From sequence record SRR20825019_212: a stretch of 64,000 nt of DNA. One strand, given 5' to 3'. Below are positions 27,945 to 57,977 of the stretch, piece after piece. The translations under genes and the position numbers were made by a program. Within the stretch, counting starts at the first letter, position 1. The number at the start of each line of letters is the position of its first letter. The notes beneath the pieces were generated by a model. The model was not told the origin of the DNA. It saw only the letters and a program-made list of their open reading frames with translations, and searched no databases.

Positions 27945-27948
27945 ATAT

Positions 27949-41293: not shown

Positions 41294-41332
41294 CGGAATA
41301 TAAGTTTAGTTATTTTTCAATTTGAAAATGTA

Positions 41333-42231: not shown

Positions 42232-43674
42232 ATGCTTTTTAATTCTTTTGAGTTCCTACTTTTTTTTCCAATAGTACTTTTAATGTACTATCTGCTACCT
42301 CATAAACTACGGTGGCTGTTCTTATTGGCTTCAAGTTATTATTTCTATGCCGCATCGGAACCCTACCTGATTATTCTATTGCTCATATCCACTCTGGTGG
42401 ATTACTATTGTGGTCTAAAAATCGGCGACGTAGTTTCCAGAAGGAAAAAATATTACCTATGGCTCAGCATAGTGGTCAACATAGGCATTCTTGTTGCCTT
42501 CAAATATTTATTTTTCTTCATTGATTCCACAAACAGCATCTTGGAATATTTTGGGGTAGAGATATCCTCTTCCGAAAAAATACAGTCGTACAGAATTGAT
42601 CAAATCTTGTTACCGGTAGGTATCAGCTTCTATACGTTTCAGACCATGAGCTACACCATAGAGGTTTACCGGGGCAATATGAAGCCCGAGAAACACCTTG
42701 GTAGATTCGCCCTTTTTGTTGCTTTCTTTCCTCAATTGGTCGCTGGCCCTATTGAAAAGGCCACTAGGCTATTGCCTCAGTTAAAAAAAACCATTTCTCC
42801 CGATATATCCCAAATCAAACGAGGAATGATAATCATGGCATGGGGGTTCTTTTTAAAAATTGTCGTGGCCGATCGTTTGGGCATTTACGTGGATGCTGTT
42901 TATGCTGATCCAGACGGTCATCAGGGACTCCCCTCTTTGTTGGCAGCTTTCTTTTTTGTATTCCAGATATACTTTGATTTCGCTGCCTACACTTATATTG
43001 CTATAGGAGCTGCAAAGACCATGGGGATTTCATTGATCAATAATTTTAACAGACCCTTGTTCTCGATCAATATTACGCAGTTCTGGCAACGCTGGCATAT
43101 ATCGCTGACCCAATGGATTAGGGATTATCTCTATAGTCCCTTGAGAAGAAAGGCCCATTTAAACCGGGTGGTCTCCGTACTATTGGTCTTCTTTATTATG
43201 GGACTATGGCACGGAGCCAATTGGACCTTTGTGGTCTGGGGATTGATCAATGCCCTGTTTTTGATAATAGAAGTGGCTACCAACAAATGGCGGAAAAATA
43301 GTTTTGACTTTTTACACATTCCCTCCAAGCTTAGGTACTTTATGGGTTGGGCGGTGTCATTTACCCTAATGATGCTGTCCCTAATCTTCTTTAGATCGGC
43401 ATCAATACAAGAAGCTTTCAACTTTATTGGCAATCTTTTTGTTGTTCCAAACTTGCACATCAATGTACTCAACAACTATTTGGAGCTCTTTTTGAGCATC
43501 CTTTTGATTTTTGGTGTACAATGGGTTCACTTTGTTAAGGGGAACAATAAGATATATGAATTGGTGGAAGGGCGACCGGTCTGGGCCCGGTGGTCCATGT
43601 ACTTGGCATATATCGCCATTATTGTGATGCTGGGCATCAACAGGCAAGAGAGTTTTATTTATTTTCAATTCTGA
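42232..43674 (+). CDS. MBOAT O-acyltransferase (AlgI/DltB-like), copy 1
   Basis: MLFNS, LPVGISFYTFQ, FFPQLVAGPIE, FWQRWHISL, catalytic GLWHGA, C-terminal FIYFQF; start set at ATG 42232. Confidence 0.92.
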   Translation: MLFNSFEFLLFFPIVLLMYYLLPHKLRWLFLLASSYYFYAASEPYLIILLLISTLVDYYCGLKIGDVVSRRKKYYLWLSIVVNIGILVAFKYLFFFIDSTNSILEYFGVEISSSEKIQSYRIDQILLPVGISFYTFQTMSYTIEVYRGNMKPEKHLGRFALFVAFFPQLVAGPIEKATRLLPQLKKTISPDISQIKRGMIIMAWGFFLKIVVADRLGIYVDAVYADPDGHQGLPSLLAAFFFVFQIYFDFAAYTYIAIGAAKTMGISLINNFNRPLFSINITQFWQRWHISLTQWIRDYLYSPLRRKAHLNRVVSVLLVFFIMGLWHGANWTFVVWGLINALFLIIEVATNKWRKNSFDFLHIPSKLRYFMGWAVSFTLMMLSLIFFRSASIQEAFNFIGNLFVVPNLHINVLNNYLELFLSILLIFGVQWVHFVKGNNKIYELVEGRPVWARWSMYLAYIAIIVMLGINRQESFIYFQF

Positions 43675-43679
43675 TCACA

Positions 43680-44615
43680 ATGAGATATTTTATCCTAAAG
43701 CTCCTCCTTTTTTTCGCGCTATTGGCCTCGGCGTATGCCTTTATGGTCAATAGACTTTCCGAAGGCTATGTAGATATGTATTATCCTAAATATACCCAAG
43801 GTGCCAGTAGTTTGGTCATTGGACTCTCGAGGGCAGATCAAGGAATTGACCCCAAAACAGTCACCGAAAATATCAATCAGGAAATAAATCTGCCATTGAT
43901 AAATTTCGCCGCTAACCAATACTATTATGGAGAGGTATATCTGGAGGCCATCAAAGAAAAACTTATTAGGGCCAATGGCAAAGGAGTGTTCATACTAAGT
44001 GCATCTCCGGGTAGCTTTACCGCCCCTATTGGCTTTGGAGCCGAAGGAATCAAAAAAATGGACGAGAAAGCGGCCATAGGAAAAACCGAAGACTTCAACT
44101 CGAACCCCAACTATAGTTACATCATAAACTGTTATGGACAGGGGCTTTACCATGCCCTGTTTGCCCAAAGGGCACCAGGAAATGTAATTACGCATGACAA
44201 TGGATGGAACGAGGTCTTGGTATCTGGAAGCGACTTTACCCTGAGCGATGCTTTGAAAATGGACTGGAAAAGACAAAACCTTGCCTATTTTCAACGTAGA
44301 CTACCCAAGGAAGAAACAAAAAACTATAGATGGGAATGGTTTGGAAAGACCATTGAATACCTTAAGGACAAGGGACAGGTAATTTTGGTAAGAATGCCGG
44401 CCGACAAAGAAATTATTGATTTCGAAAATGAGAATTCCCCCAATTTTAGAAAATCAATGGACAGCATTACAAAAATTCATCAAATTCCTTATCTCGACTA
44501 TTCCAAAAATGCCTCTGGTTACAAAACCTATGATGGGTCGCACCTACATTCTGAGAGCGCTATCCAATTTTCTACACAATTGGCCAAGGATATCGCCGTT
44601 CATATAAAAAAGTGA
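43680..44615 (+). CDS. Membrane-anchored SGNH-like (DltD/AlgJ-type) acyltransferase partner
   Basis: N-terminal TM, IGLSRA (G-x-S), C-terminal YDGSHL (D-x-x-H); directly after the MBOAT; start set at ATG 43680. Confidence 0.65.
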   Translation: MRYFILKLLLFFALLASAYAFMVNRLSEGYVDMYYPKYTQGASSLVIGLSRADQGIDPKTVTENINQEINLPLINFAANQYYYGEVYLEAIKEKLIRANGKGVFILSASPGSFTAPIGFGAEGIKKMDEKAAIGKTEDFNSNPNYSYIINCYGQGLYHALFAQRAPGNVITHDNGWNEVLVSGSDFTLSDALKMDWKRQNLAYFQRRLPKEETKNYRWEWFGKTIEYLKDKGQVILVRMPADKEIIDFENENSPNFRKSMDSITKIHQIPYLDYSKNASGYKTYDGSHLHSESAIQFSTQLAKDIAVHIKK

Positions 44616-44622
44616 TAGCCGC

Positions 44623-45660
44623 TTGATAAGTGAAAAAAAACATATAATTCCCCCACCACTTGATGACCCGTATACTTCGGATACCTTCACGTCCATTTGG
44701 TCACAGCACTTTGCAAGAGGTTTGGATACCATCAATTGTGATTGTTTTGAAGGAATATCGTTTTATAAAAAGGGAAGACTTCCCGTATATAACAATGTAG
44801 GGGCCACAAACACTAAAGGGATTCATTATTGTGTCAATCCCTCAACCATGCCCATTGCAAATGACAACAAGGTCTATCTTATTTATGATGTTCCGGATTT
44901 TGGATTCCACAGGGAACAAATACCAAATGGACTCCGATTGATTTCTATACCACAATACGAAGGTTATATTTGTGATTTGGCCAATGAAGGGTCCGCCGAA
45001 GGATACCTCACAACCAACCTAAGCTCGCGGAGCCGGTCCAAGTTGAGGAATTACGGAAATAAGTTGAAGAAAAAGTATTCAGTGGAATACCAGATGATAT
45101 GGGGCGATATGCCAGAAAAAGAATATGACACCCTTTTTGAAAAATTCCATGAACTTCTTGTACGCAGGTTCGATGAAAAACAGATAGTGAACAACAATCT
45201 GGACCCAAAAGAATGGTCATTTTTCAAGGATGTTACTTTGCCAATGATGCGCAACAAAGAAGCAGGTTTATTTGTTGGCTCTGTTCAGGGCAATCCAATA
45301 GCCATTACACTACTCAATTTTTCAAAGGACCATGCCTATGACGTCATACGGGTTTTTGACATCGATTTTTCAGAGTATAGGATAGGTAGTCTCAGTATAG
45401 TTGGACAAATAGATTGGTGCATTAAAAACAATTTTAAGGTTTTGGACTTTTCCAAAGGTCATTTTGATTATAAGGAGAGATGGTGCAATCGTTCCTATAT
45501 GCTAAATTATCATATCTGGTACAATCCCAAGAGCTTGATGAGCAGGGGAATTGCCCAACTATTGGCTACAAAGTTCAAACTTAAATACTGGGCCCGTACA
45601 CAAGGAATTCATAAAAGCTTGCATAAAATACGCTATAAACTGGGACACAAACCTAAGTGA
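44623..45660 (+). CDS. GNAT/Fem-like (Acetyltransf_6-type) protein, array member 1
   Basis: YDVPDF, RRFDEK, FDIDFSEYRIG, DFSKGHFDYKERW; TTG start uncertain. Confidence 0.75.
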   Translation: MISEKKHIIPPPLDDPYTSDTFTSIWSQHFARGLDTINCDCFEGISFYKKGRLPVYNNVGATNTKGIHYCVNPSTMPIANDNKVYLIYDVPDFGFHREQIPNGLRLISIPQYEGYICDLANEGSAEGYLTTNLSSRSRSKLRNYGNKLKKKYSVEYQMIWGDMPEKEYDTLFEKFHELLVRRFDEKQIVNNNLDPKEWSFFKDVTLPMMRNKEAGLFVGSVQGNPIAITLLNFSKDHAYDVIRVFDIDFSEYRIGSLSIVGQIDWCIKNNFKVLDFSKGHFDYKERWCNRSYMLNYHIWYNPKSLMSRGIAQLLATKFKLKYWARTQGIHKSLHKIRYKLGHKPK

Positions 45661-45671
45661 AATGTTGAACA

Positions 45672-46619
45672 ATGACTGGCCTTCCCAAGCACTATACCGA
45701 CCATTGTCTGTTTCAGTTATACCTGAACAAAACACTGCATGCCGTACACCAAGGGAAAGTTCGGAACCTGCTTGTGAACCGTTATTTATCACTTACCCCC
45801 TCAGTCTATCAAGAAGATGGGAAATCATTTTATATAATCAAAGACGTACCCGACTATCTTAATTTTCAAGAACATACTCCCCTTGACCATGGCTTTATCA
45901 AGGTACCACAATATGATGGACATTTAGTCAACCTACATTCCTACCAGAACCTCTCTGAGTATTTGAACGACCAACTCAGTAAACGCAATATCAAAAATCT
46001 TAGGAGTAAAAAAAGAAAACTGGAATCCTTGGGAGGCATCAGGTATAAGGTGTTGTCTGGTGATTTGGTGGAATCTGAATATGAAAAAATATTCGACTAT
46101 TTTAAAAAACTACTGTCCAAAAGGTTTGATCAAAAGGGTATTCTGAACAGGGACCTTGCCTACTGGCGGCAATTGTATGGTTTTACACTGCCCAAGTTAC
46201 GAAATGGCGACGCCAAATTGTTTGTTATATATAAGGATGAACTGCCTATATGCATTGCCTTGAACTACATTGTGGATCATGTAATGTTCAGTCATATTCA
46301 AACCTACGACATTGATTATTCACCATACAATTTGGGCGATATCCATATACAGTTCCAGTTGGAATGGTGTTTCTCCAATAATATTGACATCTATGACGTT
46401 TCCAAGGGTACCAACCCTTACAAGGAAAAATGGTGCAATCATCGCTATCGTTTGTTCCACGAAATCGTATATTCCAAAAAATCCGTTGTGTGCACCATAA
46501 GGGCCAAATCCAAAAAAATAGAACTGAACATCTTGCAATGGTTCAGAAATATAGGGATTTTGGGAAATCTAATACAAATGGACAAATGGTTATATGCCAT
46601 AAATAAATGGCGCAAATAG
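45672..46619 (+). CDS. GNAT/Fem-like protein, array member 2
   Basis: KDVPDY, KRFDQK, YDIDYSPYNLG, DVSKGTNPYKEKW. Confidence 0.75.
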   Translation: MTGLPKHYTDHCLFQLYLNKTLHAVHQGKVRNLLVNRYLSLTPSVYQEDGKSFYIIKDVPDYLNFQEHTPLDHGFIKVPQYDGHLVNLHSYQNLSEYLNDQLSKRNIKNLRSKKRKLESLGGIRYKVLSGDLVESEYEKIFDYFKKLLSKRFDQKGILNRDLAYWRQLYGFTLPKLRNGDAKLFVIYKDELPICIALNYIVDHVMFSHIQTYDIDYSPYNLGDIHIQFQLEWCFSNNIDIYDVSKGTNPYKEKWCNHRYRLFHEIVYSKKSVVCTIRAKSKKIELNILQWFRNIGILGNLIQMDKWLYAINKWRK

Positions 46620-46651
46620 GTTATTTTAATAACAGGTGAGAGTCACTAATT

Positions 46652-47818
46652 ATGGCGAGAATTCTTAACATACTATCCAATCACATCGATTTTCATGAAC
46701 TTGTTCTTCTTGAAAAAAAGACGGACAAGTTGTATCGCTGGATAAGGAATTCATTTACCGGCAATTTGGCATATCAAAAAAAGCTTCCCCGAGAAAATCC
46801 TAACTACGGTGGACAAAGGCCCATGGTACTTACCAGTGTACCTAGTTATATTGATACGGAACTGGACCTTGGAACCGATATAATCATTAAAAAAGTCCGG
46901 ACCTTCCCTGGCTCATTGATAAAACTATCGGCCTATAAAAGTTACGAGGAGTACTTAAAAAAGACCTTTGATCAAAAAGGACGGTCTCATTTTGCCAAAT
47001 GTCAGAATCTCCTGAATGAGTGTTTTACCATCCGGCATCAAATCTATTATGGTTCCATGGAAAAGGAAGAATACCAAATAGTTTTTAATGCTTTTGAGCA
47101 AATGCAGGCTAGGCGTTTTAAACAAAAGGGCTTACAGTCCGGTACTGATCCTATGCTATCGGAATACCGAGAAAAAACCTTGGAACTTGTTCGCAATAAA
47201 CAAGCTTGCATTTCGGTCATATATAATGGGGATACGCCCATCGCCATAAGTCTGAACTATATACTGGGAAAAATTATTCATGGATTCACCAAAACCTTTG
47301 ATTCGGCCTATTCCAAATTTAGTCTAGGACACATTGAACTTCTCAATGTCATAAAGTGGTCCTTTGATGAAGGATTTGAAGTGTTCGATTTTATGAAAGG
47401 TGAATATAGCTACAAAAATAGGTTTGCAGATACCTCCTACCCTTTTTTGCTCGAAACCATATACCACAAGAAAGGAACCTTAAATCGCATTTGGGGCCGT
47501 TCCGTTTTTTTGGGGCTAAAACTTTTTTATTTTATCTATCACGCTACAAGACTTGTTAGATCTGCCAATACCAAAAGGTCTAGGAACATATCCAGAAATT
47601 TGTTGAAAGTTCAAAAAATACCTGTAGATACTGATACCATTAGCGTTGAGGAGAAAAGAGTGCATTTCGATGAAATACAGAGTCAATATATTCAAAAAGC
47701 CATCTGTGATTATTGTTATCGCAACAGAGAGCCCATGGATTCCTTTAAATTTTATTTAAAAGATGACCATATAAAAATGATATCCAAGAAAGAAGTTTTG
47801 ATATTTAAGGAGCTATAG
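46652..47818 (+). CDS. GNAT/Fem-like protein, array member 3
   Basis: TSVPSY, RRFKQK, FDSAYSKFSLG, DFMKGEYSYKNRF. Confidence 0.75.
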   Translation: MARILNILSNHIDFHELVLLEKKTDKLYRWIRNSFTGNLAYQKKLPRENPNYGGQRPMVLTSVPSYIDTELDLGTDIIIKKVRTFPGSLIKLSAYKSYEEYLKKTFDQKGRSHFAKCQNLLNECFTIRHQIYYGSMEKEEYQIVFNAFEQMQARRFKQKGLQSGTDPMLSEYREKTLELVRNKQACISVIYNGDTPIAISLNYILGKIIHGFTKTFDSAYSKFSLGHIELLNVIKWSFDEGFEVFDFMKGEYSYKNRFADTSYPFLLETIYHKKGTLNRIWGRSVFLGLKLFYFIYHATRLVRSANTKRSRNISRNLLKVQKIPVDTDTISVEEKRVHFDEIQSQYIQKAICDYCYRNREPMDSFKFYLKDDHIKMISKKEVLIFKEL

Positions 47819-47824
47819 CCCAAT

Positions 47825-49021
47825 ATGAAGAACGTTTCCTTTTTAGCAGAGCTACTCGAAAAAGACACTATTACCGAGCATGTAAGGTCTATTTCCCTAA
47901 AAGATGATCCTAGCAAGGTGTATCTAAATACAACTGATAAGCTGGAGCCTCGTAGAGAAAATGTGCTCTATACTGACGTGCCGGGATACTTGAACGTTAC
48001 TTTTACACAAAACGGCCAGAAAAAATGGGGAGAATCAGTGGCTACTTTTGAGGGTTCCTATATTGATTTAAAAAAATATACTGACCTAGACCAGCTCTTG
48101 AAAAGTAAGTTGAGCTCTAAAAGAGTATCGAGGTTGAGGGCCTATAAAAGAACCTTGGAAAAGGTATTCCCAATAAACTATCAATATTATTATGGCGAAA
48201 TACAGGATCGCACTTATGAAAACTTGATGAACACCTTGAAACAGATGGTCACCACCCGTTTTGATGAAAAACAAATGAGCCATATGGCCCTCACGGAATG
48301 GGATCGATTCAAGGAACTGGGAAAAGGACTTATTCGAGAAAAAAAAGCATCCTTGATCGTTATTTATCATGGTGATGAGCCTATACATATTTCCTTCAAC
48401 TATATCTGGAAACAATTGGTTTTTGGCTATGTCAGGGGCTTCAATATTGATTACTCCAAGTTTTACCTGGGGTATATCGATATCATGATCCAACTACAAT
48501 GGTGTTTTGAGATGGGTTTCGAAATCTATGACCTTTTGCGTGAAAATATGGAGTACAAACTTCGTTTTGCGGATCATACCTATCTCTATGCCTGTCATAT
48601 AACGGTTGCCAAACAAGGACCTCTTTCTATAATAAGTCCTTTAATAACTTGGCTCTCCCTATCGTTAAAATTTGACATCTATTATCCATTCATGTCAAGA
48701 TTAAGAGCCATTTACCACCGAATCCCATTCTTGCCCAAAAGAAAGAAAAGAAGAATTCAGCCCTTCTACCATTTGGAAAAACTCGACAAAGAACAATGGG
48801 CAAAAATGGACAAGAAAAGGTTCTCGCAAACTGGAATCGACTCTTTGAACGAACCCTATGGCAAACGAGCCATATATCACTTTTTGTACCTTTCCAAGGA
48901 CAAACTGGAGCATCTCAAAATCTACACCAGTTTGGACGATGAGCATTCAATTATTTTGGAATGCCCCAACAGTTTAGGAAAAGTCATTTTCAAAAACAGA
49001 GTGGAAAAGCATGGGAAATAA
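47825..49021 (+). CDS. GNAT/Fem-like protein, array member 4
   Basis: TDVPGY, TRFDEK, FNIDYSKFYLG, DLLRENMEYKLRF. Confidence 0.75.
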   Translation: MKNVSFLAELLEKDTITEHVRSISLKDDPSKVYLNTTDKLEPRRENVLYTDVPGYLNVTFTQNGQKKWGESVATFEGSYIDLKKYTDLDQLLKSKLSSKRVSRLRAYKRTLEKVFPINYQYYYGEIQDRTYENLMNTLKQMVTTRFDEKQMSHMALTEWDRFKELGKGLIREKKASLIVIYHGDEPIHISFNYIWKQLVFGYVRGFNIDYSKFYLGYIDIMIQLQWCFEMGFEIYDLLRENMEYKLRFADHTYLYACHITVAKQGPLSIISPLITWLSLSLKFDIYYPFMSRLRAIYHRIPFLPKRKKRRIQPFYHLEKLDKEQWAKMDKKRFSQTGIDSLNEPYGKRAIYHFLYLSKDKLEHLKIYTSLDDEHSIILECPNSLGKVIFKNRVEKHGK

Positions 49022-50189: not shown

Positions 50190-50211
50190 TTCCTTCCAAA
50201 ACCACAGACCA

Positions 50212-51185
50212 ATGAGAGCAAGGTTTCTTCTTGATATACTTTTGGGGCCTTCCCATATCGAAACACCGGTTCTTACGGGCAAGGTCGATGAAAATGGCAT
50301 ATATAAGGTGTCATTGGCCGAAAACCAAGATAACGATGAGGCTTACACCATAATCGATGTTCCTGACCACCAATCCGTAAGGTTTTTGGAATCCCTAGAA
50401 TCCCGGAATAGGTTTACTTCCCCCCTATACCAAGGTTATCTTATTGAATTGAGCGAACATGATAGTTTTGAAGATTATTTCAGGTCACATTTTAATGCAA
50501 AAGGATCCAGAAATCTGAGGAGGCAAGGTAAAAAGCTTTTCAAGGAAATTCCTGCCCGCATGGTGACTTACTATGGAAAAACCGAAAGAGGAACGTTGGA
50601 CATGCTGTTTGAAAGCTTGGGAGAGTTCCTTGAAAAACGGTTTGAGCAAAAGGAGGTATCCAATTATGAAATACCCTTGTTGCCCCTGTACAAAAAAATG
50701 TTCCGCAAATTGCTTCCAGAAAAAAAGGCCGTGATTTTTTCCTTGTTCGATGCGGATGATCCAATAGCTTTGGGCATCGGTTTTGTTTATGGAGACACCC
50801 TTTATCTTTTCAATATCGCTTATGATGTTGACTACTCCCAATATGGGCCGGGAAACCAAATTATGATGGAGGCCGTGGCTTGGTGCTTTGATAAAGGAAT
50901 CGCCCGTGTGGATATGGGCCGGGGCGACTTTTTACACAAAAAAAATGGGTGAATACTTCGTACACTTATACACAAATAGACTTGTACGACCCTAAAAATG
51001 TTGGAAGAAGATTGCGGGCATTACTTTCTTGGACCTTGAACACCTCTCGTTTTTATGGAATCCGATTCCTAAAAAAACTCCAAGTGCACCAATTGGCCAA
51101 AAGATGGTTTATCTGGAAATACAGGACCAAACAATTCCTGAGCAATAAAAACGACCATTCCACAAAAAATATATCGGAGTCCTGA
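50212..51185 (+). pseudogene. GNAT/Fem-like protein, array member 6, frameshifted at an A8 tract (50938-50945)
   Basis: ORFs 50212-50952 and 50949-51185 join into one 324-aa frame if one A is added, restoring HKKKW-VNTSY, which matches the family's YK.KW motif. Confidence 0.75.
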
Positions 51186-51187
51186 CC

Positions 51188-52366
51188 ATGAGCAACGTAA
51201 AACACATAAATATCTTTCAATCCCTTTACGAACGGGGGAGTTTGCCCATGGAATTTGCCCATTCAAAAATAATGGACAATTCTTTGCTGTTTGATGAATA
51301 TTCATGGGTAAGACAGGAAAAATATGCTTTTTCGTGTCGTTTAATTCCGTCCTATTTTATCATTGATCAAGCGAAATCTTCATACAATATCAAGACCGTT
51401 GACCAACATAATTGGGGGTACTCCATTGATCTCTCCAATTGCTCCTCCATTGACGACTACCTATCTTCCCAGTTCAAGTCGAAACCAAGGAGTATCATTC
51501 GACGTTATGTCAACAGACTGGAAGCTTGTTTTCCCATATCATACAAGCTGTACCATGGGGAACTTGAAAAGGAGATTTACAACGCTGTTTTTGATGCTCT
51601 ACGAGATATGATCAAGAAACGGTTTCAAGAACGCGAAGAAACCCATAAAGAAATGTGGAGATGGGAGGCGCTAAAACAAAACACCTATCAACAAATCTTA
51701 AACAAACAGGCCTCATTATTTGTGATTTACGATGAATCCAAACCCATAGAGATATCTTTAAATTATCATTTGGGTCCGGTTCTTTTCAGTTCGGTATCGT
51801 CATACGACCTTGACTACGGAAAGTTCGGCCTTGGTCATGTAGAAATCTACAAACAGCTGGAGTGGTGCCTATCCAATGGATATAAATTATTTGAAATGGG
51901 TGTCGGCGGAATGGATTACAAAAGAAAATGGAGCAACCATATCTACCAGTTTTCTCATTGGATAATCACCCCAAAAGAGAATTTGTTCCTAGGGTTGGTC
52001 AGTAAGATTGAACTCTGGAAGGTTCGTCTAAAGGAATATCTAAAATCAAAAAAAGTGAACGAACTCCGTGATAGGGTTATTGAACTCATCAATTTTGGTA
52101 AAACCAAGAAAATAGTTTTGGATGAAGTTGATTTTTCAACTGAAGCGGTCAATGGTCATATCAACCTTCAAATGCTAATGCTGTTAACTCCCAAGGAGGT
52201 GGAACAGATAGAAGGGCTTAGAAAAGCTATCAATGATTTTCTCTATACCAATACACTGGCCTATTCAAAAATAAAAGTATATAAGGACAATAGTAATTCT
52301 AGATGCTTTTTGATAGGGTATAATTACAAGGGAAAAGACCAATTCACCAAAATAACACACAAATAA
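51188..52366 (+). CDS. GNAT/Fem-like protein, array member 7
   Basis: RLIPSY, KRFQER, YDLDYGKFGLG, EMGVGGMDYKRKW. Confidence 0.78.
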   Translation: MSNVKHINIFQSLYERGSLPMEFAHSKIMDNSLLFDEYSWVRQEKYAFSCRLIPSYFIIDQAKSSYNIKTVDQHNWGYSIDLSNCSSIDDYLSSQFKSKPRSIIRRYVNRLEACFPISYKLYHGELEKEIYNAVFDALRDMIKKRFQEREETHKEMWRWEALKQNTYQQILNKQASLFVIYDESKPIEISLNYHLGPVLFSSVSSYDLDYGKFGLGHVEIYKQLEWCLSNGYKLFEMGVGGMDYKRKWSNHIYQFSHWIITPKENLFLGLVSKIELWKVRLKEYLKSKKVNELRDRVIELINFGKTKKIVLDEVDFSTEAVNGHINLQMLMLLTPKEVEQIEGLRKAINDFLYTNTLAYSKIKVYKDNSNSRCFLIGYNYKGKDQFTKITHK

Positions 52367-52686: not shown

Positions 52687-53787
52687 ATGGACAAAAATGA
52701 TCTACAAGTAGTTCTTTTGACCAAAAAAGAACTGCTGAAATATCTTGAATCACCACACGAACAACGTAAATATCCACTGCCCTTTTCCCAGAACAAGGCA
52801 CAATGGTTGTTGGATAAACCGGAGCTTGATGAGAACGACTGTTTGGCCGTAATGGCCGTGTCTGGAGGAAAACTACTTAGTTTTGCCCACTTGGTACCGG
52901 ATTTTCTGTCTTCTCCCGACCAAGATACCGGAACTAAGATATACTGGATAGTGCAATGGTGGGCGGCACCTTCTGCCAAAAGTACTGTTATCTCCACCTA
53001 TGTTTTTAGTGAAGCCCTACGGTTGAGCAACAACATGGTATTGACCAAGGCCTATGAAGAAAACGCCGATACCTTTTATAAAAAACAACCTTTTTCTGTC
53101 ATCGGAACCATGGAGCGGCACACCATTTTTATAGGGGTGGCCAAGGACATGGTAAACCAAAAGCTACGTTTGCCCAAATGGTTAAGCCCCATAACTCGCT
53201 GGGTCGAATCCATTTCAATGAAATACTATAATGCCATCAATAGTTCCCGGATCTATACTTTGACAAAGGATTTAGACCTCAGGTATATGAACCAATTGGA
53301 TGTAGAGGCTTGGAATTTTATCGAGCCTTACCTCCAAAGTGATTTGGTTGCAAAAAATTTGGCACAAATCAATTGGCAATTAGACCCTAGACAGTATGTA
53401 TCAAAACCATGGAACCATGGTAAAATGGATGATTCAAAAATCAGGGGATTTGCCGAGAGAATAGGTATTGTCAATTTTCTAGTGTACCGCGATGGGAAGG
53501 CAATCGGTTTTGCTTCCTTCCACTACATACACAGTACGGCCTATATGAAATATTGTATTGCCAACGATGCCGATATGCCAGGAGTATGTGCCTGTTTATA
53601 TAAGAACCTATACGAATTGAACATTTCCTATATGTTCACGGACAATCAAACTTTGGCAGAACATTTCACCAAGACGTTGTCCGTTTTTTATCATTATCGT
53701 CAAACCAAAAAATCCATGGCACATAATGCCTTGCACAAAGAACTGCAGGTATCGCAATTGGCCGAACAGGATGGACACTTTATATAA
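52687..53787 (+). CDS. Hypothetical protein, possibly a divergent GNAT-fold acyltransferase
   Basis: 366-aa soluble ORF directly before the adenylation enzyme; GNAT-like strands (AVSGGKLLSFA, YWIVQWWAAP, VYRDGKAIGFA). Confidence 0.5.
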   Translation: MDKNDLQVVLLTKKELLKYLESPHEQRKYPLPFSQNKAQWLLDKPELDENDCLAVMAVSGGKLLSFAHLVPDFLSSPDQDTGTKIYWIVQWWAAPSAKSTVISTYVFSEALRLSNNMVLTKAYEENADTFYKKQPFSVIGTMERHTIFIGVAKDMVNQKLRLPKWLSPITRWVESISMKYYNAINSSRIYTLTKDLDLRYMNQLDVEAWNFIEPYLQSDLVAKNLAQINWQLDPRQYVSKPWNHGKMDDSKIRGFAERIGIVNFLVYRDGKAIGFASFHYIHSTAYMKYCIANDADMPGVCACLYKNLYELNISYMFTDNQTLAEHFTKTLSVFYHYRQTKKSMAHNALHKELQVSQLAEQDGHFI

Positions 53788-53796
53788 CCCTGCAAC

Positions 53797-55293
53797 ATGA
53801 AATTTCTCGAGACCCTTCAAAATTCCATTAAGGTACACAGTGACCGAAATGCTTTTTTTATCAACGGAAATCATTACACCTATCAGGAATTGGGCACAGC
53901 CGTAAATGCGATCAGGGTGGCCATACAAAAAGAAATTCCAATATCCGAAAAGTATGTGGGCCTTATCACCAATGATGACCTGGAGACCTATGCAGCGATC
54001 ATTGCGCTTTGGTTCGAGGGGAAGGCCTATGTTGCTATCAATCCTATTTATCCTAGATCAAGAAACGAAGAGATACTTGCACAGACCAATTCAGTGTTTG
54101 TAATGGACTCTTCACCATCACCTTATTTTGGAAAGGGATTTAAAGTGATAGCTACCCATAGTTTGGATATGGTCAATAACATTCACCACTCTCCTCCTAA
54201 GAAAGTGGAACAAAATGATATTGCCTACGTCATCTTTACATCGGGAAGTACGGGCATACCTAAAGGGGCTCCGGTCAGTTTCAAGAACCTGAACGGTTTC
54301 GCAAATGCGATTGACAATAACCTCTCCTTCTCGCTGTCCGAGACAGACCGTTGCCTGCAAATGTTCGAATTGACCTTTGACATGTCCGTGGTATCCTACC
54401 TTGCCCCTTTGTTAAAAGGAGCTTGTGTATATACGGTGCCAAAGGATAGCATCAAGTACTTTCAGATCATAAAATTGTTATCGGAGCACCAACTTACCCT
54501 CTTGATCATGGTCCCCTCCATTATTCATTTCCTAAGACCCTATTTCAAAGAAATTCGAAGTGAGAGTGTAAGATATTCCTGTTTTGCAGGGGGTAAACTC
54601 TATGGTGATATAGGCAAGGAGTGGAACGCCTGTATTCCAAATGCCCAGATTATTAACTATTATGGCCCTACCGAGACCACCATATATTGTGGGGGCTATC
54701 TGTTTGACAAAGAAGGAAACAACAAAGAGGAAAACGGAGTAGTGTCCATAGGCAAACCTTTTGACAATACCACCTATTTGGTCATTGATGAAAACAATAA
54801 TGAAGTAGAGTATGGACAAACGGGAGAATTATGTATCGCGGGAGAGCAATTATTCCCTGGATATATACAAAACGAAGAAAGGAACAAGCTCGTTTTTTTT
54901 GAAAAACAGCATAATGATAAAACACTATTATTCTACAAATCAGGGGATATGTGCTATCGCGACCAAGATGGGGACTACATGTACGTGGGACGGGCCGACT
55001 TTCAGGTTAAAATAAGGGGGTTCCGTGTGGAACTGGGAGAAATTGAATACCACGTAAAGAAAAAATTACCGGGCTTGGATATCACGGTAATCGATTTGGA
55101 TGATGGAAACGGGAATACCGAACTCGGGCTGGCCGTTTGTTCAAGAGAACTGGATCTGAAACCTACGCTTTCCTATTTGAAAGACAACTTGCCACCATAT
55201 ATGATCCCAACAAGGTTCCTATTTATAGACAAATTGCCCCATAGTGTCAACGATAAAATTGATATGAAGAAACTTAGAACACTTTTTAAATAA
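53797..55293 (+). CDS. Stand-alone amino-acid adenylation enzyme (DltA-like)
   Basis: A3 YVIFTSGSTGIPKG, A4 FELTFDMSV, A5 NYYGPTE, A6 GELCIAG, A7 YKSGD, A8 GRADFQVKIRGFRVELGEIE, A9 LPPYMIP, A10 NDKID. Confidence 0.9.
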   Translation: MKFLETLQNSIKVHSDRNAFFINGNHYTYQELGTAVNAIRVAIQKEIPISEKYVGLITNDDLETYAAIIALWFEGKAYVAINPIYPRSRNEEILAQTNSVFVMDSSPSPYFGKGFKVIATHSLDMVNNIHHSPPKKVEQNDIAYVIFTSGSTGIPKGAPVSFKNLNGFANAIDNNLSFSLSETDRCLQMFELTFDMSVVSYLAPLLKGACVYTVPKDSIKYFQIIKLLSEHQLTLLIMVPSIIHFLRPYFKEIRSESVRYSCFAGGKLYGDIGKEWNACIPNAQIINYYGPTETTIYCGGYLFDKEGNNKEENGVVSIGKPFDNTTYLVIDENNNEVEYGQTGELCIAGEQLFPGYIQNEERNKLVFFEKQHNDKTLLFYKSGDMCYRDQDGDYMYVGRADFQVKIRGFRVELGEIEYHVKKKLPGLDITVIDLDDGNGNTELGLAVCSRELDLKPTLSYLKDNLPPYMIPTRFLFIDKLPHSVNDKIDMKKLRTLFK

Positions 55294-55306
55294 AATAGAA
55301 CATAAA

Positions 55307-55552
55307 ATGACGAACGACGAAAAGATACTGGCTGAACTAAAAGAAATATTCATAGAGACCCTTGGTCATGATAATTTTGAGCTCGATGGCAACACCACGG
55401 CCAATGATGTGGACGGTTGGGATTCCGTGACACATATGATGCTCATCAATGAGGTCGAGAAGAAATATGACATGAAGTTCTCTTTAATGGACCTGATGAG
55501 CCTAGAAAAAGTAGCAGATCTGGTGAAGGCTATAGAACAAAGGCAATCCTAA
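55307..55552 (+). CDS. Acyl/aminoacyl carrier protein (DltC-like)
   Basis: 81 aa, acidic; phosphopantetheine site GWDSVTHM. Confidence 0.88.
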   Translation: MTNDEKILAELKEIFIETLGHDNFELDGNTTANDVDGWDSVTHMMLINEVEKKYDMKFSLMDLMSLEKVADLVKAIEQRQS

Positions 55553-55560
55553 ATCCCCAA

Positions 55561-56520
55561 CTAGTTGGCAACACCGACACTTTTTAGGTCTTGGACAAGT
55601 AGTTCCGCAATCAAGGTGCGCCCATAATTATTCCAATGCCGATCGTATACCAAAGTGGTATTTCGATTGGCATTGTTGAGCTTTTCTCCAAAATCGATAT
55701 AATCAAAACCATTGGTGTCCAAATAGTCTAAAAACAGTTTTGGCGTAGTGGACACATCCATCAGCAGAACGGTTTTGTCCTTATCATATCCGTACAGGGC
55801 CACTAAATTCTTAAAGTTTTCAAGGAACGTTTGATCTTTTGATTCCGTCTTCTGCTGTGTTACCGATTTTGGCCTATTTCCACCTTGCGCCAATACTCTG
55901 GCATCATTGATCATATTCTTCATAGGCGTCAGTGCCCCTATTTCCGAGAGGTACACCAAAAACTTACTTTTTTTCAGGATTTTGTTCAAAGGCGACTCCA
56001 AGCTCAACCTTTCGTTCTGTACATAGTACTCTCTCCTATTGAGATCGTTGGAGAATTTCATTTTGATATAGATACGGTCAATAAGCTCAAAGTCCTCCCG
56101 ATAAGCATGGATCAAATGCATCTGGTCTGCCATATCATAACCGGCATAACCATATTCAAACACTTTTATTGTTTCCCCTAGTTCCAGTTCCATTTTTCTT
56201 CCTATGGAAGATTTATAGGGTTGATGAAATCCTTCGATAAAGGAATCCCCCACCAAGGCAACCTCATAGCCCTCTTTGGTGGGTTCAAACTCTTGATAGG
56301 AATTAAAGCCTGAACTGTTTATATTATATCTTACAAAGTTTTGGTTTCTATTACCGGTAACAGAATATCCTTCTTGGTTGGGCTTCCATTTTTCCACTTT
56401 GTTTTCGTCCACAAAACGGGACGGCTTATCCTCTCCCAAATAAAATATCCTGACTAAGACCTCCAAGGAAATCAGAATGAGAAAAGCGTAAACTCCTAAT
56501 TTGATGACTAACTTTTTCAT
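55561..56520 (-). CDS. Membrane-anchored SGNH-like (AlgJ/AlgX-type) acyltransferase partner
   Basis: N-terminal TM (LEVLVR), VGDSFIEG, C-terminal YDRHWN (D-x-H); directly after MBOAT copy 2. Confidence 0.7.
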   Translation of the reverse strand: MKKLVIKLGVYAFLILISLEVLVRIFYLGEDKPSRFVDENKVEKWKPNQEGYSVTGNRNQNFVRYNINSSGFNSYQEFEPTKEGYEVALVGDSFIEGFHQPYKSSIGRKMELELGETIKVFEYGYAGYDMADQMHLIHAYREDFELIDRIYIKMKFSNDLNRREYYVQNERLSLESPLNKILKKSKFLVYLSEIGALTPMKNMINDARVLAQGGNRPKSVTQQKTESKDQTFLENFKNLVALYGYDKDKTVLLMDVSTTPKLFLDYLDTNGFDYIDFGEKLNNANRNTTLVYDRHWNNYGRTLIAELLVQDLKSVGVAN

Positions 56521-56522
56521 GG

Positions 56523-57977
56523 TTAAAACTGAAAATATATGAACGATCTATCAAAACCACTGTCATAGAACAGTAGCATGGTAAAAATCACCAAAGTATA
56601 CGCAAAAAAACGAACAGCCTTGGACTTGAACTGGAACGGATTCCGTTCATCCCTTCGAATCCGATATTCATAAAGCACAAATACGGCCAAAAGGATAAAG
56701 TAATCCAACATACGATACCCATTGGGATGCTCATAGGGAGCATAACTAAAATCACTGAATATCCTCCCAATAAAATTAAAGGAATCTGTCAAGGATTCGG
56801 ATCTAAAGAAGATACGGGAAAAGGTGACGATTCCAAAAGTAAGTACCAATTGGCCCAATTCTGTCAAAGAAGGAAAAAGGGAGTTCTCCCCTACTACATT
56901 ATCCTTGTAAATGGTATTCCTTCCCATCAAAAAAACCGGGATATAAGCCAAGGCATGAAAACCTCCCCAAAATATAAAGGTCCAATTGGCCCCGTGCCAA
57001 AATCCGCTCACCAAAAATATGATACAGATATTTCGTATTGCCCTTCCCTGACTAACGCGCGACCCTCCCAACGGGATATAAACATAGTGCCTAAACCAAG
57101 TGGATAACGATATGTGCCACCTTTGCCAATACTCGGCTACATTTCTTGAAAAGTTAGGGAACTTGAAATTGGACATCAATTCCACGCCGAACAATTTGGC
57201 CGTACCAATGGCTATATCGGAATATCCGCTAAAATCCCCGTAAACCTGAAAACTGAACAGCGTTACACCCAGAATCAATGTGGATGCAGGATAGGTTTCA
57301 TGGTTCAAGAAAATATCATCCACAATCGGTGCTATACCATCCGCTATCACCAACTTTTTAAAAAGTCCCCAAAGAATGAGTTTGAGCCCACTTACTATTT
57401 GATCGTAGTTAAACGTTCTTTTATTCGTAATTTGATGTAATAAATTGGAAGCCCGCTCGATGGGACCGGCCACCAACTGCGGAAAGAACGCTACAAAGGT
57501 TGCGAAGGACAGAAAATCGTGGCAAGGCTTTATTCTTTTGTAATAAATATCCATGGAGTAGGACATCGTTTGGAAGGTATAGAAGGAAATCCCAACTGGC
57601 AATATAATCTTGAGTGTCCAAGTACTTTTGATGGAATATCCCATAACCTCAAATAGATCTATAAAGGAATCCACAAAAAAATTATAGTACTTAAAAAAAC
57701 CGAGCAAGGATATATTGAATATGACACTTACCCATAACCACAATTTCTGCTTTGGCCTATCGCCCTCGTTCCTGTGGATCATAATGCCCACAAAATAATC
57801 TACGACCGTACTGGCAATTATAAGAAACAAAAACCTCCAGTCCCAGAGCCCATAAAAGAAATAACTCCCAACAAGAACAAGTACGTTTTGAAGTCTTAAT
57901 CCCTTACCAAGAACGAACCAGTACAAAAGGAACATTATCGGCAGAAAAATAAAATACTCAAGGGAGTTGAACAACAT
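56523..57977 (-). CDS. MBOAT O-acyltransferase (AlgI/DltB-like), copy 2
   Basis: MLFNS, LPVGISFYTFQ, FFPQLVAGPIERA, WQRWHISL, GFWHGA, C-terminal FIYFQF. Confidence 0.92.
   Translation of the reverse strand: MLFNSLEYFIFLPIMFLLYWFVLGKGLRLQNVLVLVGSYFFYGLWDWRFLFLIIASTVVDYFVGIMIHRNEGDRPKQKLWLWVSVIFNISLLGFFKYYNFFVDSFIDLFEVMGYSIKSTWTLKIILPVGISFYTFQTMSYSMDIYYKRIKPCHDFLSFATFVAFFPQLVAGPIERASNLLHQITNKRTFNYDQIVSGLKLILWGLFKKLVIADGIAPIVDDIFLNHETYPASTLILGVTLFSFQVYGDFSGYSDIAIGTAKLFGVELMSNFKFPNFSRNVAEYWQRWHISLSTWFRHYVYIPLGGSRVSQGRAIRNICIIFLVSGFWHGANWTFIFWGGFHALAYIPVFLMGRNTIYKDNVVGENSLFPSLTELGQLVLTFGIVTFSRIFFRSESLTDSFNFIGRIFSDFSYAPYEHPNGYRMLDYFILLAVFVLYEYRIRRDERNPFQFKSKAVRFFAYTLVIFTMLLFYDSGFDRSFIYFQF

Follow-up and report, generated by a model that had tools for sequence, protein, structure and literature searches.

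Three separable modules at the conserved end of a flavobacterial surface-sugar locus: MBOAT/SGNH-like pairs, a Fem-like array and a G8-adenylation-carrier cassette

In a marine flavobacterium, a gene cluster for surface sugars has at its conserved end two MBOAT/SGNH-like pairs that bracket an array of GNAT genes, an adenylation enzyme and a carrier protein, and the question raised by this locus is whether these genes form a single relay. The earlier note on this DNA read them as one expanded Dlt-like system. The window, which is the whole stretch of 64,000 nucleotides analysed (record SRR20825019_212), contains three separable modules: the MBOAT/SGNH pairs, an array of PF13480 genes, and a cassette of G8, adenylation and carrier genes (Table 1). 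Most likely, the three modules decorate one lipid-linked surface glycan and are not one Dlt-like relay. The earlier interpretation is partly supported: its parts list is correct, every part it named is found in place by ORFs, Pfam and NCBIfam, and the literature searched contains no characterised system of this kind.

Gene content and locus context

The Pfam scan confirms the Wzx/Wzy-type locus described upstream, containing Wzc, Wza, Wzx, EpsG and glycosyltransferases. The sugar genes of this locus encode a PglF/PseB-like dehydratase and a LegC-family aminotransferase (388.9 bits versus a cut-off of 420), together with two NeuD/PglB/VioB-family acetyltransferases and two PglC-like transferases. 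The four genes from 36927 to 41914 (g0a, g0b, the PglC-like and the formyltransferase genes) keep their synteny in genome G005. Since a congener shares gene-for-gene synteny, with protein identities of 38-85%, and the arrangement recurs in many genera, it is not due to chance.

A set of 71 related Flavobacteriaceae loci was gathered with G7 as query and therefore says nothing about the frequency of MBOAT pairs or cassettes in loci that lack GNATs. MBOAT, SGNH-like, adenylation, carrier and G8 genes are found together in 22 of these loci, 20 loci have the MBOAT and SGNH-like genes and the array and lack the adenylation, carrier and G8 genes, and 22 show GNAT arrays only (within ±10 kb). Homologues of the adenylation enzyme (E<=1e-20) and of G8 (E<=1e-5) are absent genome-wide from five of five genomes that have the array but lack the cassette, and the adenylation query used did recover G001, G011, G005 and a copy with 27% identity. 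Among the 71 loci, 33 contain g0a/g0b, 24 contain a PglC-like phosphoglycosyl transferase gene, and in 30 a conserved OmpA-like gene adjoins the array. In metagenome loci the cassette is flanked by the PglC-like transferase gene and g0a, and PglC-like genes also flank the cassette and arrays in other loci.

Table 1. Features of the window, with coordinates, strand and basis of assignment.
Feature	Coordinates	Strand	Evidence
G0a, 870 aa, FAD/NAD(P)-binding domain fused to Fem-like domain	36927-39539	+	PF13480
G0b, Fem-like	39559-40611	+	PF13480
PglC-like phosphoglycosyl transferase	40655-41293	-	Pfam, NCBIfam
Formyltransferase	41333-41914	-	Pfam, NCBIfam
MBOAT1, PatA/AlgI-type, fused C-terminal FIYFQF tail	42232-43674	+	PF03062, E 3.2e-21
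Partner 1, membrane-anchored, SGNH-like (DUF1574-like)	43680-44615	+	Conserved motifs, Atlas, complex prediction
G1, Fem-type double-GNAT paralogue, 345 aa	44623-45660	+	PF13480, E 3.6e-12
G2, Fem-type paralogue, 315 aa	45672-46619	+	PF13480, E 1.8e-13; weak FemAB_like match
G3, Fem-type paralogue, 388 aa	46652-47818	+	PF13480, E 2.5e-12
G4, Fem-type paralogue, 398 aa	47825-49021	+	PF13480, E 1.1e-08
G5, Fem-type paralogue, 392 aa	49011-50189	+	PF13480, E 1.4e-15
G6, Fem-type paralogue, split ORFs of 246 aa and 78 aa	50212-51185	+	PF13480, E 8e-19
G7, Fem-type paralogue, 392 aa	51188-52366	+	PF13480, E 1.2e-07; weak ATE_C match
G8, double-GNAT transferase of NMT/Eis type, first cassette gene	52687-53787	+	AF2 model fold matches
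Stand-alone NRPS-type amino-acid adenylation enzyme	53797-55293	+	PF00501, E 3.3e-57
Carrier protein, 81 aa, DS phosphopantetheine site	55307-55552	+	PF00550, 30.8 bits versus 20.8
Partner 2, membrane-anchored AlgX/AlgJ-like SGNH	55561-56520	-	Conserved motifs, PF16822 in orthologues, Atlas
MBOAT2, PatA/AlgI-type, fused FIYFQF tail	56523-57977	-	PF03062, E 1.4e-28

The MBOAT/SGNH-like pairs

The ATG at 42232 is the true start of MBOAT1, because its orthologues start with MLFNSFEF. MBOAT1 shows a WHISL histidine motif, both MBOATs end in SFIYFQF, and FIYFQF is kept in every MBOAT1 or MBOAT2 orthologue with a recovered C-terminal end. Against the DltB model (TIGR04091, cut-off 375 bits), MBOAT1 scores 162.6 bits with about 92 C-terminal residues unmatched, and MBOAT2 scores 149.4 bits with residues 3-391 of 484 covered; about 90 residues of both proteins extend past the model. 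Judged by sequence, both MBOATs are of the PatA/AlgI form rather than DltB. Parts of PMC12148441 set out the MBOAT-SGNH mechanism of the PatA/AlgI type and ascribe the fused-tail form to acyl-CoA-using, carrier-free systems. Both pairs most likely perform acyl-CoA-fed O-acylation outside the cell, although the fused tyrosine tail alone may still be compatible with a carrier-protein donor. Full-length MBOATs adjoin a gene resembling partner 1 or 2 in 53 of 58 cases, and MBOAT2 and partner 2 persist in loci without the cassette.

The SGNH identity proposed for both partners is borne out at family level for partner 2: ALGX (PF16822) is matched by 16 of its 19 orthologues (best E 8.2e-06; the window copy reaches only E 0.24) and Lipase_GDSL_2 by 12 of the 19, the residues G91-D92-S93 and D293-x-H295-W296 are invariant, and the Atlas score to SGNH/GDSL clusters is 0.95-0.98. 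For partner 1, the window copy has no Pfam match and none of 18 orthologues matches an SGNH Pfam family, and the assignment is indirect, from the invariant motifs GxSR (G48-x-S50-R51) and DGxH (D285-G-x-H288), an Atlas feature score of 0.97-0.98 to DUF1574/SGNH clusters, and a complex prediction. By hhalign, the membrane anchor is the only region shared by the two partners. The predicted complex of MBOAT1 with partner 1 scores 0.75 (best of three controls, 0.00) and passes a mark that is reached by 51 of 78 solved complexes and two of 108 mismatched pairs. Its contacts agree between runs to at least 88%, the pLDDT of partner 1 is at least 85, and the last helix of MBOAT1 (457-471) touches the membrane anchor of partner 1; the high score may stem from recognition of DltB-DltD-type complexes already solved, and the supplied alignments were not used. 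The tail motif and this prediction make the proposed relay from MBOAT to C-terminal tyrosine to SGNH protein plausible for each pair.

The closest known systems for this module are PatA/PatB, of peptidoglycan O-acetylation, and AlgI/AlgJ/AlgX, which share with it an MBOAT that has the conserved histidine and, fused to its C-terminal end, an FxYxxF tail (FIYFQF in this locus), an adjoining membrane-anchored SGNH-like partner and, across the relatives gathered here, independence of a carrier protein; the AlgX Pfam match of the partner 2 orthologues is a further likeness. Unlike them, this locus has two pairs with unrelated partners, one of which belongs to no Pfam family, and the place of pair 1, immediately before a Fem-like array, is fixed. 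Partner 1 directly follows MBOAT1 in 32 loci, G1 is the next gene in 31 of these 32, and plain O-acetylation gives no account of this tight tie.

The G8-adenylation-carrier cassette and a Dlt-like relay

The G8 protein shows only a sub-threshold Acetyltransf_1 match in Pfam (18.5 bits versus a cut-off of 20.7). Its AF2 model is a double GNAT (pLDDT 84.4) and is closest over the whole protein to N-myristoyltransferase (NMT), with VIA Z scores of 19.2 (rmsd 4.2, 298 aligned) and 18.2 at 11-12% identity; Eis2 follows with Z 15.6, FemX reaches only Z 12.2, and the Foldseek E value is 4.2e-11. The G8 family contains 833 representatives at E<=0.001, nearly all stand-alone and of about 365 aa. NMT takes its acyl group from a phosphopantetheine thioester and places it on an amine, and by analogy this chemistry would fit a carrier-protein thioester as the donor for G8. 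In contrast to NMT, the donor would be an aminoacyl-carrier protein and not acyl-CoA, and the G8 gene always comes with those for an adenylation enzyme and a carrier.

The adenylation enzyme scores 314.3 bits against TIGR01733 (cut-off 317.4) and 248-262 bits against DltA models, of which the DltA equivalog gives 248 against a cut-off of 559.85; among PDB proteins, PheA gives 190.6 bits and DltA 162.9. The equivalents of Asp235, which binds the amino group, and Lys517 are kept in 23 of 23 orthologues, and the pocket residues form four classes. The carrier shows the motif GWDSV. The order G8-adenylation-carrier is found in all 23 cases among the 71 loci, with the adenylation gene immediately flanked by the other two, and the cassette is duplicated in locus L029. 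G8 is followed by the adenylation gene in 21 of 25 metagenome loci, and the other four end too early to tell.

These data bear on the reading in which the adenylation enzyme loads the carrier, the GNATs N-acylate or extend the amino acid there, and the (peptidyl-)aminoacyl group then travels through one or both MBOATs, by the tail tyrosine, to the SGNH protein and the polymer. As in the Dlt system of Firmicutes (DltA, DltC, DltB, DltX, DltD), a stand-alone adenylation enzyme and a small carrier lie beside MBOAT/SGNH-like genes, and the tyrosine-shuttle chemistry is probably common to both; all parts are together in the 22 loci mentioned, the enzyme keeps the amino-binding Asp and matches DltA models, and 8 bp separate the end of the carrier gene from partner 2/MBOAT2 in this genome, where MBOAT2 may yet be carrier-fed. 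However, the MBOATs have a fused tail instead of the DltX microprotein, all Dlt family cut-offs are missed (DltA, DltB and DltD), with no DltD Pfam match, and the adenylation and carrier genes are tied genetically to G8 and not to the MBOATs. The 20 loci without the cassette, and the five genomes without adenylation enzyme or G8, also argue against this reading, which we consider unlikely. Given the same tails, linkage and loci, a supply of the MBOATs by the adenylation enzyme and carrier, in the manner of DltA/DltC and DltB, is not supported and is probably wrong, and editing of a carrier-bound amino acid by the GNATs is likewise not supported: the array GNATs resemble users of aminoacyl-tRNA, not of thioesters.

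An adenylating enzyme and a Fem-like GNAT also occur together in the exopolysaccharide loci of the XrtA/PEP-CTERM system, as an AMP-forming ligase (TIGR03098) and a FemAB-family protein (TIGR03019). Here both matches are sub-threshold (G0a 50.8 bits versus 260.35 for TIGR03019; the adenylation enzyme 176.1 versus 592.35 for TIGR03098), and Pfam scans of the window show no exosortase. To our knowledge this FemAB/AMP-ligase system is uncharacterised, and the literature searched yielded no papers on it.

The Fem-like array and the predicted decoration route

The reported array of seven GNATs is present as seven colinear PF13480 (Acetyltransf_6) genes from 44623 to 52366 (E 1.2e-07 to 8e-19), but the sixth is split and two further PF13480 genes, g0a and g0b, lie just upstream. 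The break in G6 is a 1-nt deletion, an A8 run versus AAAAGAAAA in five related loci, and G6 is intact, with 324 aa, in the 98%-identical genome G001; G3 is only 87% identical to its G001 copy, and its neighbours are 97-100% identical. The paralogues share 22-37% pairwise identity (G4 with the others, 22-33%), have 1:1 orthologues in the congener, and form position-specific clades in a tree of 394 sequences: the G1 orthogroup (support 0.995) comprises 62 sequences, drawn from 58 loci, and nearly always sits at position 1-2; the G2 orthogroup occupies positions 2-3 in 41 loci, that of G3 positions 3-4 in 37, and the G5 clade, with a weak support of 0.47, positions 4-6 in 41. The number of paralogues per locus ranges from 1 to 8 among the 71 loci. 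All of G1-G7 keep a (Y/I/H)-K-x-x-(W/F) motif and none has an N-terminal signal sequence; four Fem-like paralogues have an extra C-terminal domain of unknown fold. Of 300 Flavobacteriaceae genera sampled, 74 have the subfamily, against none of 278 genomes of other Bacteroidota families, and no description of it was found in the literature searched.

The Fem-like nature proposed for these GNATs agrees with the AF2 model of G7 (pLDDT 89), whose five best VIA matches are all aminoacyl-tRNA users: FemX (Z 16.8, rmsd 3.8, 225 aligned), FemX Wv (15.7), Sbb17 (15.7), FemA (14.7) and the MprF-type L-PGS (14.2); the match to MprF/FemX has E 1.5e-08. Use of aminoacyl-tRNA by the array is a prediction from this model. 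FemX/FemA/FemB and MurM/N, which make Lipid II branch peptides, and Orf11/Sbb17, VlmA, DhpH/K and PacB share the double-GNAT fold, and, as in the Fem and MurM/N systems, several paralogues here would work one after another on an amine linked to a lipid or sugar. Passages of PMC12945691 report that the Fem-like Orf11 aminoacylates an amino sugar, and portions of PMC12945691 and PMC2922099 give precedent for this activity in Fem-like natural-product enzymes. Unlike the known Fem systems, G7 shows no sequence-level match to solved Fem structures, the seven to nine paralogues lie in one colinear operon of a Gram-negative Wzx/Wzy polysaccharide locus, and four of them carry the extra domain.

Alternatively, the products of the PF13480 genes would be ordinary N-acyltransferases or N-acetyltransferases that depend on CoA, or paralogues that are in part inactive; they would serve various amino sugars or strain-variable decorations and build no peptide. 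Pfam and source names give only GNAT/CelD/BioF2-like, G6 is broken in this strain and paralogue number varies, neither the window nor any of 55 related loci contains a tRNA gene, and no aaRS paralogue is among the 24 commonest neighbour families. CoA-using tandem GNATs also match the second lobe of the G7 model (Z 13.2), but they cover this one lobe only, whereas the whole-protein matches are aminoacyl-tRNA users; the lysine motif is kept in all seven, two NeuD/PglB/VioB acetyltransferases are already in the locus, and seven to nine colinear, individually conserved orthogroups are hard to square with acetylation alone. This alternative appears improbable. More doubtful still is aminoacylation of a membrane lipid or lipid A by the array, with the MBOAT pairs on a different target: the best fold matches include MprF and aminoacyl-PG synthases and the OmpA-like gene adjoins many arrays, but an MprF-type flippase/membrane domain is absent, the array proteins look soluble, and the genes are embedded among PglC-like transferase, sugar aminotransferase/acetyltransferase and glycosyltransferase genes.

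The best reading, to which we give about an even chance, is that aminoacyl groups or a peptide are built on an amino sugar in a tRNA-dependent way, that a carrier delivers an optional further residue, and that periplasmic O-acylation follows. The data show the assigned domains and folds, the colinear orthogroups, the presence or absence of whole modules and the unity of the cassette; donors (tRNA and CoA), acceptor and step order are inferred as follows. In the cytoplasm, G1-G7 with G0a and G0b would act as an ordered row of Fem/MprF-type double GNATs that transfer amino acids stepwise from aminoacyl-tRNA to an amine. The likeliest acceptor is a bacillosamine-like 4-amino-4,6-dideoxy-HexNAc, linked to undecaprenyl-diphosphate or to a nucleotide, with its 4-amino group as the target; the product would be one short peptide chain or several separate aminoacyl substituents. 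Where the cassette is present, the adenylation enzyme would load one alpha-amino acid onto the carrier, perhaps one not available as aminoacyl-tRNA, and the NMT-like G8 would move it from the carrier thioester to an amine of the same product. After export, each MBOAT would load the tyrosine in its own FIYFQF tail with an acyl group, most likely acetyl supplied by acyl-CoA, and pass this group to its SGNH-like partner for O-acylation of the polymer. Together, the array, the two MBOAT pairs and the loading cassette predict an undescribed peptide-decorated polysaccharide.

Gene organisation of the module and its flanks

The gene layout described in the earlier note is borne out by the ORF map and by the Pfam and NCBIfam scans: two pairs, each formed by an MBOAT and a membrane-anchored SGNH-like partner, bracket an array of seven Fem-like double-GNAT paralogues (G1-G7) and a cassette containing G8, an amino-acid adenylation enzyme and a small carrier protein.

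Features of the module and of its flanks in the window (nucleotide positions)
Feature	Position	Strand	Remarks
Two PF13480 genes (G0a and G0b), second PglC-like transferase, formyltransferase	36927-41914		Between the polysaccharide locus and MBOAT1
MBOAT1	42232-43674	+	Pfam/NCBIfam; ends SFIYFQF
Partner 1, anchored protein	43680-44615	+	No Pfam match
Seven PF13480 (Acetyltransf_6) genes, G1-G7	44623-52366	+	Pfam
G8, GNAT-like gene	52687-53787	+	
Adenylation enzyme, NRPS-type	53797-55293	+	
Carrier protein, 81 aa	55307-55552	+	
Partner 2, anchored protein	55561-56520	-	No Pfam match; convergent with plus-strand genes
MBOAT2	56523-57977	-	Ends SFIYFQF; convergent with plus-strand genes
OmpA-like beta-barrel protein, PrcB-like 177-aa ORF, GT4 glycosyltransferase, 977-aa GH3 (NagZ-like)/beta-lactamase-fold fusion	58009-63858		

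Upstream of the module lies a Wzx/Wzy-type polysaccharide locus, containing genes which encode Wzc, Wza, Wzx, an EpsG-type polymerase and glycosyltransferases, together with a PglF/PseB-like dehydratase, a LegC-family aminotransferase, a PglC-like transferase and two NeuD/PglB/VioB acetyltransferases. The closest named locus is that of Flagellimonas abyssi W52, with a G7 protein match 99% identical. In the related genome G001, the segment corresponding to 20394-32705 is replaced by unrelated DNA, and from 32705 onward both sequences are 98% identical, so the module belongs to the conserved flank of a locus which varies in a serotype-like manner. The replacement segment of G001 has about 19 kb, contains extra MBOAT genes and is flanked by DNA 98-99% identical to the window. 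In the window, region 20394-32705 contains genes encoding Wzx, GT4 glycosyltransferases, a RimK-like ATP-grasp, a pyruvyl transferase, EpsG and a beta-helix protein, and by comparison with G001 it is a serotype-like variable region. The last group of genes in the table is kept in many genera and anchors the array on the right.

The adenylation enzyme is present in four of 25 genomes of the genus (E<=1e-40), three with orthologues and one with a 27%-identical relative. In G005, the most distant of the three genomes with an orthologue, each gene from G0a through to the OmpA-like gene has a syntenic counterpart, and the encoded proteins are 85% (MBOAT2), 69% (adenylation enzyme) and 38-51% (GNATs) identical to those of the window. 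The sixth GNAT gene, G6, is split in the window by a 1-nt deletion at 50935-50950, which shows an A8 run versus AAAAGAAAA in five related loci, and it is intact (324 aa) in the 98%-identical G001; the split could be a pseudogene of the window strain or a homopolymer sequencing error. G3 (46652-47818) encodes 388 aa versus 398 aa in G001 and is 87% identical to the G001 copy, versus 97-100% for the neighbouring genes, a difference suggestive of local recombination or an exchange of alleles affecting this one member of the array. A tRNA scan of the window and of 55 related loci found no tRNA genes, a result neutral for the question of a tRNA donor, and a sigma-70 promoter/terminator scan, unsuited to Bacteroidota, gave counts at or below the shuffle expectation (43 versus 54.6 and 13 versus 15.7).

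MBOAT pairs and comparison with Dlt systems

The earlier note had proposed a Dlt-like relay, in which the adenylation enzyme and the carrier feed the MBOATs and the GNATs edit the carrier-bound amino acid. Its parts and the tyrosine relay are retained; the Dlt-like coupling and the action of the GNATs on a carrier-bound amino acid are not. Evidence against coupling comes, in the first place, from the NCBIfam scores, where all the Dlt equivalog cut-offs are missed: the adenylation enzyme reaches 248 bits with the DltA model TIGR01734 (cut-off 559.85) and more, 314.3, with a generic amino-acid adenylation model, and the two MBOATs reach 162.6 and 149.4 bits with the DltB model TIGR04091 (cut-off 375). 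Pocket residues of the adenylation enzyme also differ between orthologue classes. Both MBOATs show the WHISL histidine and end in a fused FIYFQF, which is present in every MBOAT orthologue with a recovered C-terminal end; they align to the DltB model only to residue ~390-410, and about 90 more residues lead to the FIYFQF end. PatA/AlgI-type MBOATs are characterised by the conserved histidine together with an FxYxxF motif fused at the C-terminus. According to PMC12148441, PatA auto-acetylates the tyrosine of such a fused tail with acetyl-CoA as donor, and fused-tail MBOAT/SGNH systems have no carrier protein, whereas DltB has no shuttle tail and relies instead on DltX, a separate microprotein, and on DltC as carrier.

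Inheritance also speaks against coupling. Seventy-one related loci, each including at most 10 kb of flank, were retrieved with the G7-orthologue alignment and their ORFs annotated by blastp against the window proteins; all but two are titled Flavobacteriaceae or one of its genera, the exceptions being L045 (Bacteroidota only) and L064 (Candidatus Gracilibacteria). As these loci were ascertained through G7, the counts measure the companions of the array and not the converse. MBOAT and SGNH-like genes are found together with the adenylation enzyme, carrier and G8 in 22 loci; 20 loci contain MBOAT and SGNH-like genes and the array without any of these three, whereas in a Dlt system adenylation enzyme and carrier would be expected to be co-inherited with MBOAT/SGNH; and 22 loci contain GNAT arrays alone. 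Three other loci show MBOAT and SGNH-like genes with a distant adenylating enzyme, two a distant enzyme alone and two an SGNH-like gene alone. In five of five genomes where array and MBOAT pairs are present without the cassette, neither the adenylation enzyme nor G8 was found anywhere; the same adenylation-enzyme query did find orthologues in the search of the 25 genomes of the genus. For instance, the source genomes of L008 and L009 contain the cassette, and that of L010 lacks it. The case is a caution: an adenylation enzyme and a carrier adjoining an MBOAT are insufficient alone to make a Dlt-like system. From the independence of the MBOAT pairs from the carrier cassette across loci, and from PMC12148441, their donor is probably an acyl-CoA.

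A D1/D2-like gene (partner 1- or partner 2-type) adjoins 53 of 58 full-length MBOATs, and G1 lies directly after MBOAT1 and partner 1 in 31 of 32 cases. The remaining five MBOATs are followed by a different 314-aa ORF without Pfam match. These belong to a third MBOAT type, found in L024, L025, L035, L039 and L046 (~12400-14800), which is 47-52% identical to MBOAT2, ends in QFIYFQF and has no D1/D2-like neighbour; the gene annotated next to it encodes a PglC-like transferase in the first four loci and G8 in L046. The 314-aa ORF directly after it (representative, L039:13816-14760) recurs in all five loci and may represent a third partner family. A 436-aa ORF without Pfam match is also common around MBOATs of this type.

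Partner 2 shows invariant GDS and DxHW motifs, and 16 of 19 of its orthologues match the ALGX SGNH family (best E 8.2e-06; the window copy only E 0.24). Partner 1 shows invariant GxSR and DGxH motifs and no Pfam match; by its Atlas features it falls close to DUF1574/SGNH clusters, a lead and no more. Alignment of both partners by hhalign covers only the 20-residue membrane anchor, and PDB sequence profile searches returned nothing significant for either (best, a GDSL protein at E 0.063 for partner 2 and an OatA-type "acetyltransferase" at E 0.34 for partner 1). Complex prediction, made without the orthologue alignments of this analysis, gives 0.75 for MBOAT1 with partner 1 and 0.00 for the best of three controls, at a mark which 51 of 78 solved complexes and two of 108 mismatched pairs reach; at least 88% of contacts agree between runs, partner pLDDT is at least 85, and the last helix of MBOAT1 lies against the membrane anchor of partner 1. 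As DltB-DltD-type complexes are solved, this pass may reflect likeness rather than binding of this particular pair.

The Fem-like array and the G8-adenylation-carrier cassette

The seven GNATs belong to PF13480, are 22-37% identical to one another, and are old paralogues; none shows a signal peptide. The AlphaFold model of G7 (pLDDT 89), on which the fold evidence for the array is based, is a double GNAT, closest to Fem/MprF members among the families listed by VIA-align. Its top five matches in this Foldseek-independent scan are all aminoacyl-tRNA-dependent enzymes: Staphylococcus aureus FemX (Z 16.8), W. viridescens FemX (15.7), the peptide synthase Sbb17 (15.7), FemA (14.7) and L-PGS (14.2). 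Foldseek also ranks MprF and FemX first (E 1.5e-08), and the match of CoA-using tandem GNATs is limited to one lobe. The lysine of a Y-K-x-x-W/F motif is kept in all seven paralogues, and K245 is invariant in G7 orthologues; this lysine is a candidate counterpart of Lys305, the catalytic lysine of FemX according to PMC12945691. At the sequence level, a PDB profile search with the G7 alignment gave nothing significant (best, an unrelated match at E 0.091), and G1-G7 do not reach the gathering thresholds of FemAB (PF02388) or FemAB_like (PF04339), where only G2 scores (FemAB_like, 19.3 bits versus 27); G0a reaches 37 bits versus the FemAB_like threshold of 27.

In a tree of 394 sequences, the array genes fall into clades that follow their place in the row: the G1 clade covers 58 loci (positions 1-2), the G2 clade 41 (positions 2-3) and the G3 clade 37 (positions 3-4), and G7-type genes come from 69 loci, many of which contain more than one copy. 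Such colinearity is suggestive of an ordered pathway. The G-type subfamily is present in 75 of 301 sampled Flavobacteriaceae genomes, corresponding to 74 of 300 genera, and 28 of these 75 contain at least three copies (up to six scored per genome); none of 278 genomes of other Bacteroidota families contains it (E<=1e-15). Source names of these GNATs are all generic, and no description of the cluster was found in the literature searched, most marine polysaccharide structures being in subscription journals outside it.

G7 (51188-52366) has an extra C-terminal domain after the double GNAT (residues ~300-392), as have G3, G4 and G5, which is absent from G1 and G2; in G7 it is confidently modelled as beta strands and two helices and is covered by no fold match. 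G0a (36927-39539) encodes an 870-aa fusion of an FAD/NAD(P)-binding domain (PF13454) and a Fem-like domain (PF13480/FemAB_like), a pairing similar to that of an amine oxidase/hydroxylase with a Fem-like transferase in valanimycin biosynthesis; its homologues recur beside PglC-like transferases and the cassette in other genera. Within 10 kb on either side of the arrays, Cupin_8/JmjC-type hydroxylases are present in 13 loci (among them L064 9107-9955, L030 12402-13445 and L057 272-1240), and "sugar-transfer associated" and PylC-like ATP-grasp genes in seven loci each; these genes are further amino-acid/peptide chemistry in the array neighbourhoods.

The cassette shows a fixed order. All 23 adenylation-enzyme orthologues (at least 46% identical), found in 22 loci, have G8 on the left and the carrier on the right, and L029 contains two cassettes; in 25 metagenome loci retrieved with G8, the adenylation enzyme follows in 21, and the remaining four are cut off before its place could be seen. 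The G8 model (pLDDT 84.4) is also a double GNAT, with the ranking reversed compared with G7: N-myristoyltransferases (Z 19.2, rmsd 4.2 over 298 aligned residues, and 18.2), Eis2 (15.6) and FemX (12.2). The match to N-myristoyltransferase extends over the whole protein and is a fold likeness only; the Pfam scan found no match of G8 to that family, and a PDB profile search with the G8 alignment gave nothing significant (best, a GNAT at E 0.66). Among 833 representatives of the G8 family (E<=0.001), almost all are stand-alone proteins of ~365 aa; no fusion to an adenylation domain was found among longer proteins, which is weak evidence; the best 150 representatives include only one longer protein, of 508 aa. 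On these models, the array looks like tRNA users and G8 like a thioester user, which agrees with the genetics of the loci.

All core motifs are present in the adenylation enzyme, which in PDB searches scores as a generic amino-acid A domain (190.6 bits for PheA versus 162.9 for DltA). Assignment to the glycine-domain type, from a match of 325 bits to linear gramicidin synthase, was rejected, that score being the sum of two domains (152.5 and 170.1 bits). Ten pocket positions of the Stachelhaus scheme were placed by motifs, and the Asp and Lys binding the amino and carboxyl groups are kept in 23 of 23 orthologues. Four pocket classes are found: DMVSCAYIYK in five loci and the window, DFVSSGY[VI]YK in 11 loci, DAT..GHVCK in six loci, and DFVSCGSVTK in one, the second cassette of L029, which suggests that the amino acid varies between lineages. 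Distant adenylating enzymes, 25-29% identical, adjoin g0b-g1 or the array in L069, L072, L075 (~620-2170), L058, L077 and L007 (13146-14666). The amino-binding Asp is absent in those of L069, L072, L075 and L077 (pocket SYSFTAMARK or CYSSTAMARK), suggesting a non-amino-acid acyl donor in those lineages, and is kept in the L058 copy.

Proposed pathway and its meaning

According to the reviews PMC12945691 and PMC2922099, Fem-type ligases extend amines from aminoacyl-tRNA, and the acceptor aminoacylated by Orf11, a ligase of this type, is an amino sugar. We consider the chances about even that the module builds aminoacyl or peptide groups on an amino sugar in a tRNA-dependent manner, with an optional residue added by G8 and O-acylation in the periplasm. 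In such a pathway, the array would first add aminoacyl groups or a peptide to the amino sugar, G8 would then add the optional carrier-delivered residue, and the two PatA/AlgI-type pairs would finally O-acylate the product in the periplasm. A more specific version, which is possible and rather unlikely, takes the row of seven to nine ligases as a tRNA-dependent assembly line: it would make a peptide of about 5-9 residues on an amino sugar of the capsule or O-antigen repeat unit, which some lineages would finish with a carrier-delivered non-ribosomal residue through the NMT-like G8, before periplasmic O-acylation.

If the assembly line is true, about a quarter of Flavobacteriaceae genera would make a "peptido-polysaccharide", built in the manner of a peptidoglycan branch, with a Wzx/Wzy glycan as its base. 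Marine Flavobacteriaceae have a major part in the degradation of algal matter, and surface glycans shape their interactions with phages, grazers and particles. The colinear paralogues would be a natural set of ligases differing in amino-acid and acceptor specificities, and the cassette, with at least four pocket types here, a compact and portable means to place a chosen amino acid on a sugar. A tRNA-built peptide on a surface polysaccharide would represent a new class of bacterial glycoconjugate, and the Fem ligase family would have been put to a new use, outside peptidoglycan, lipids and antibiotics.
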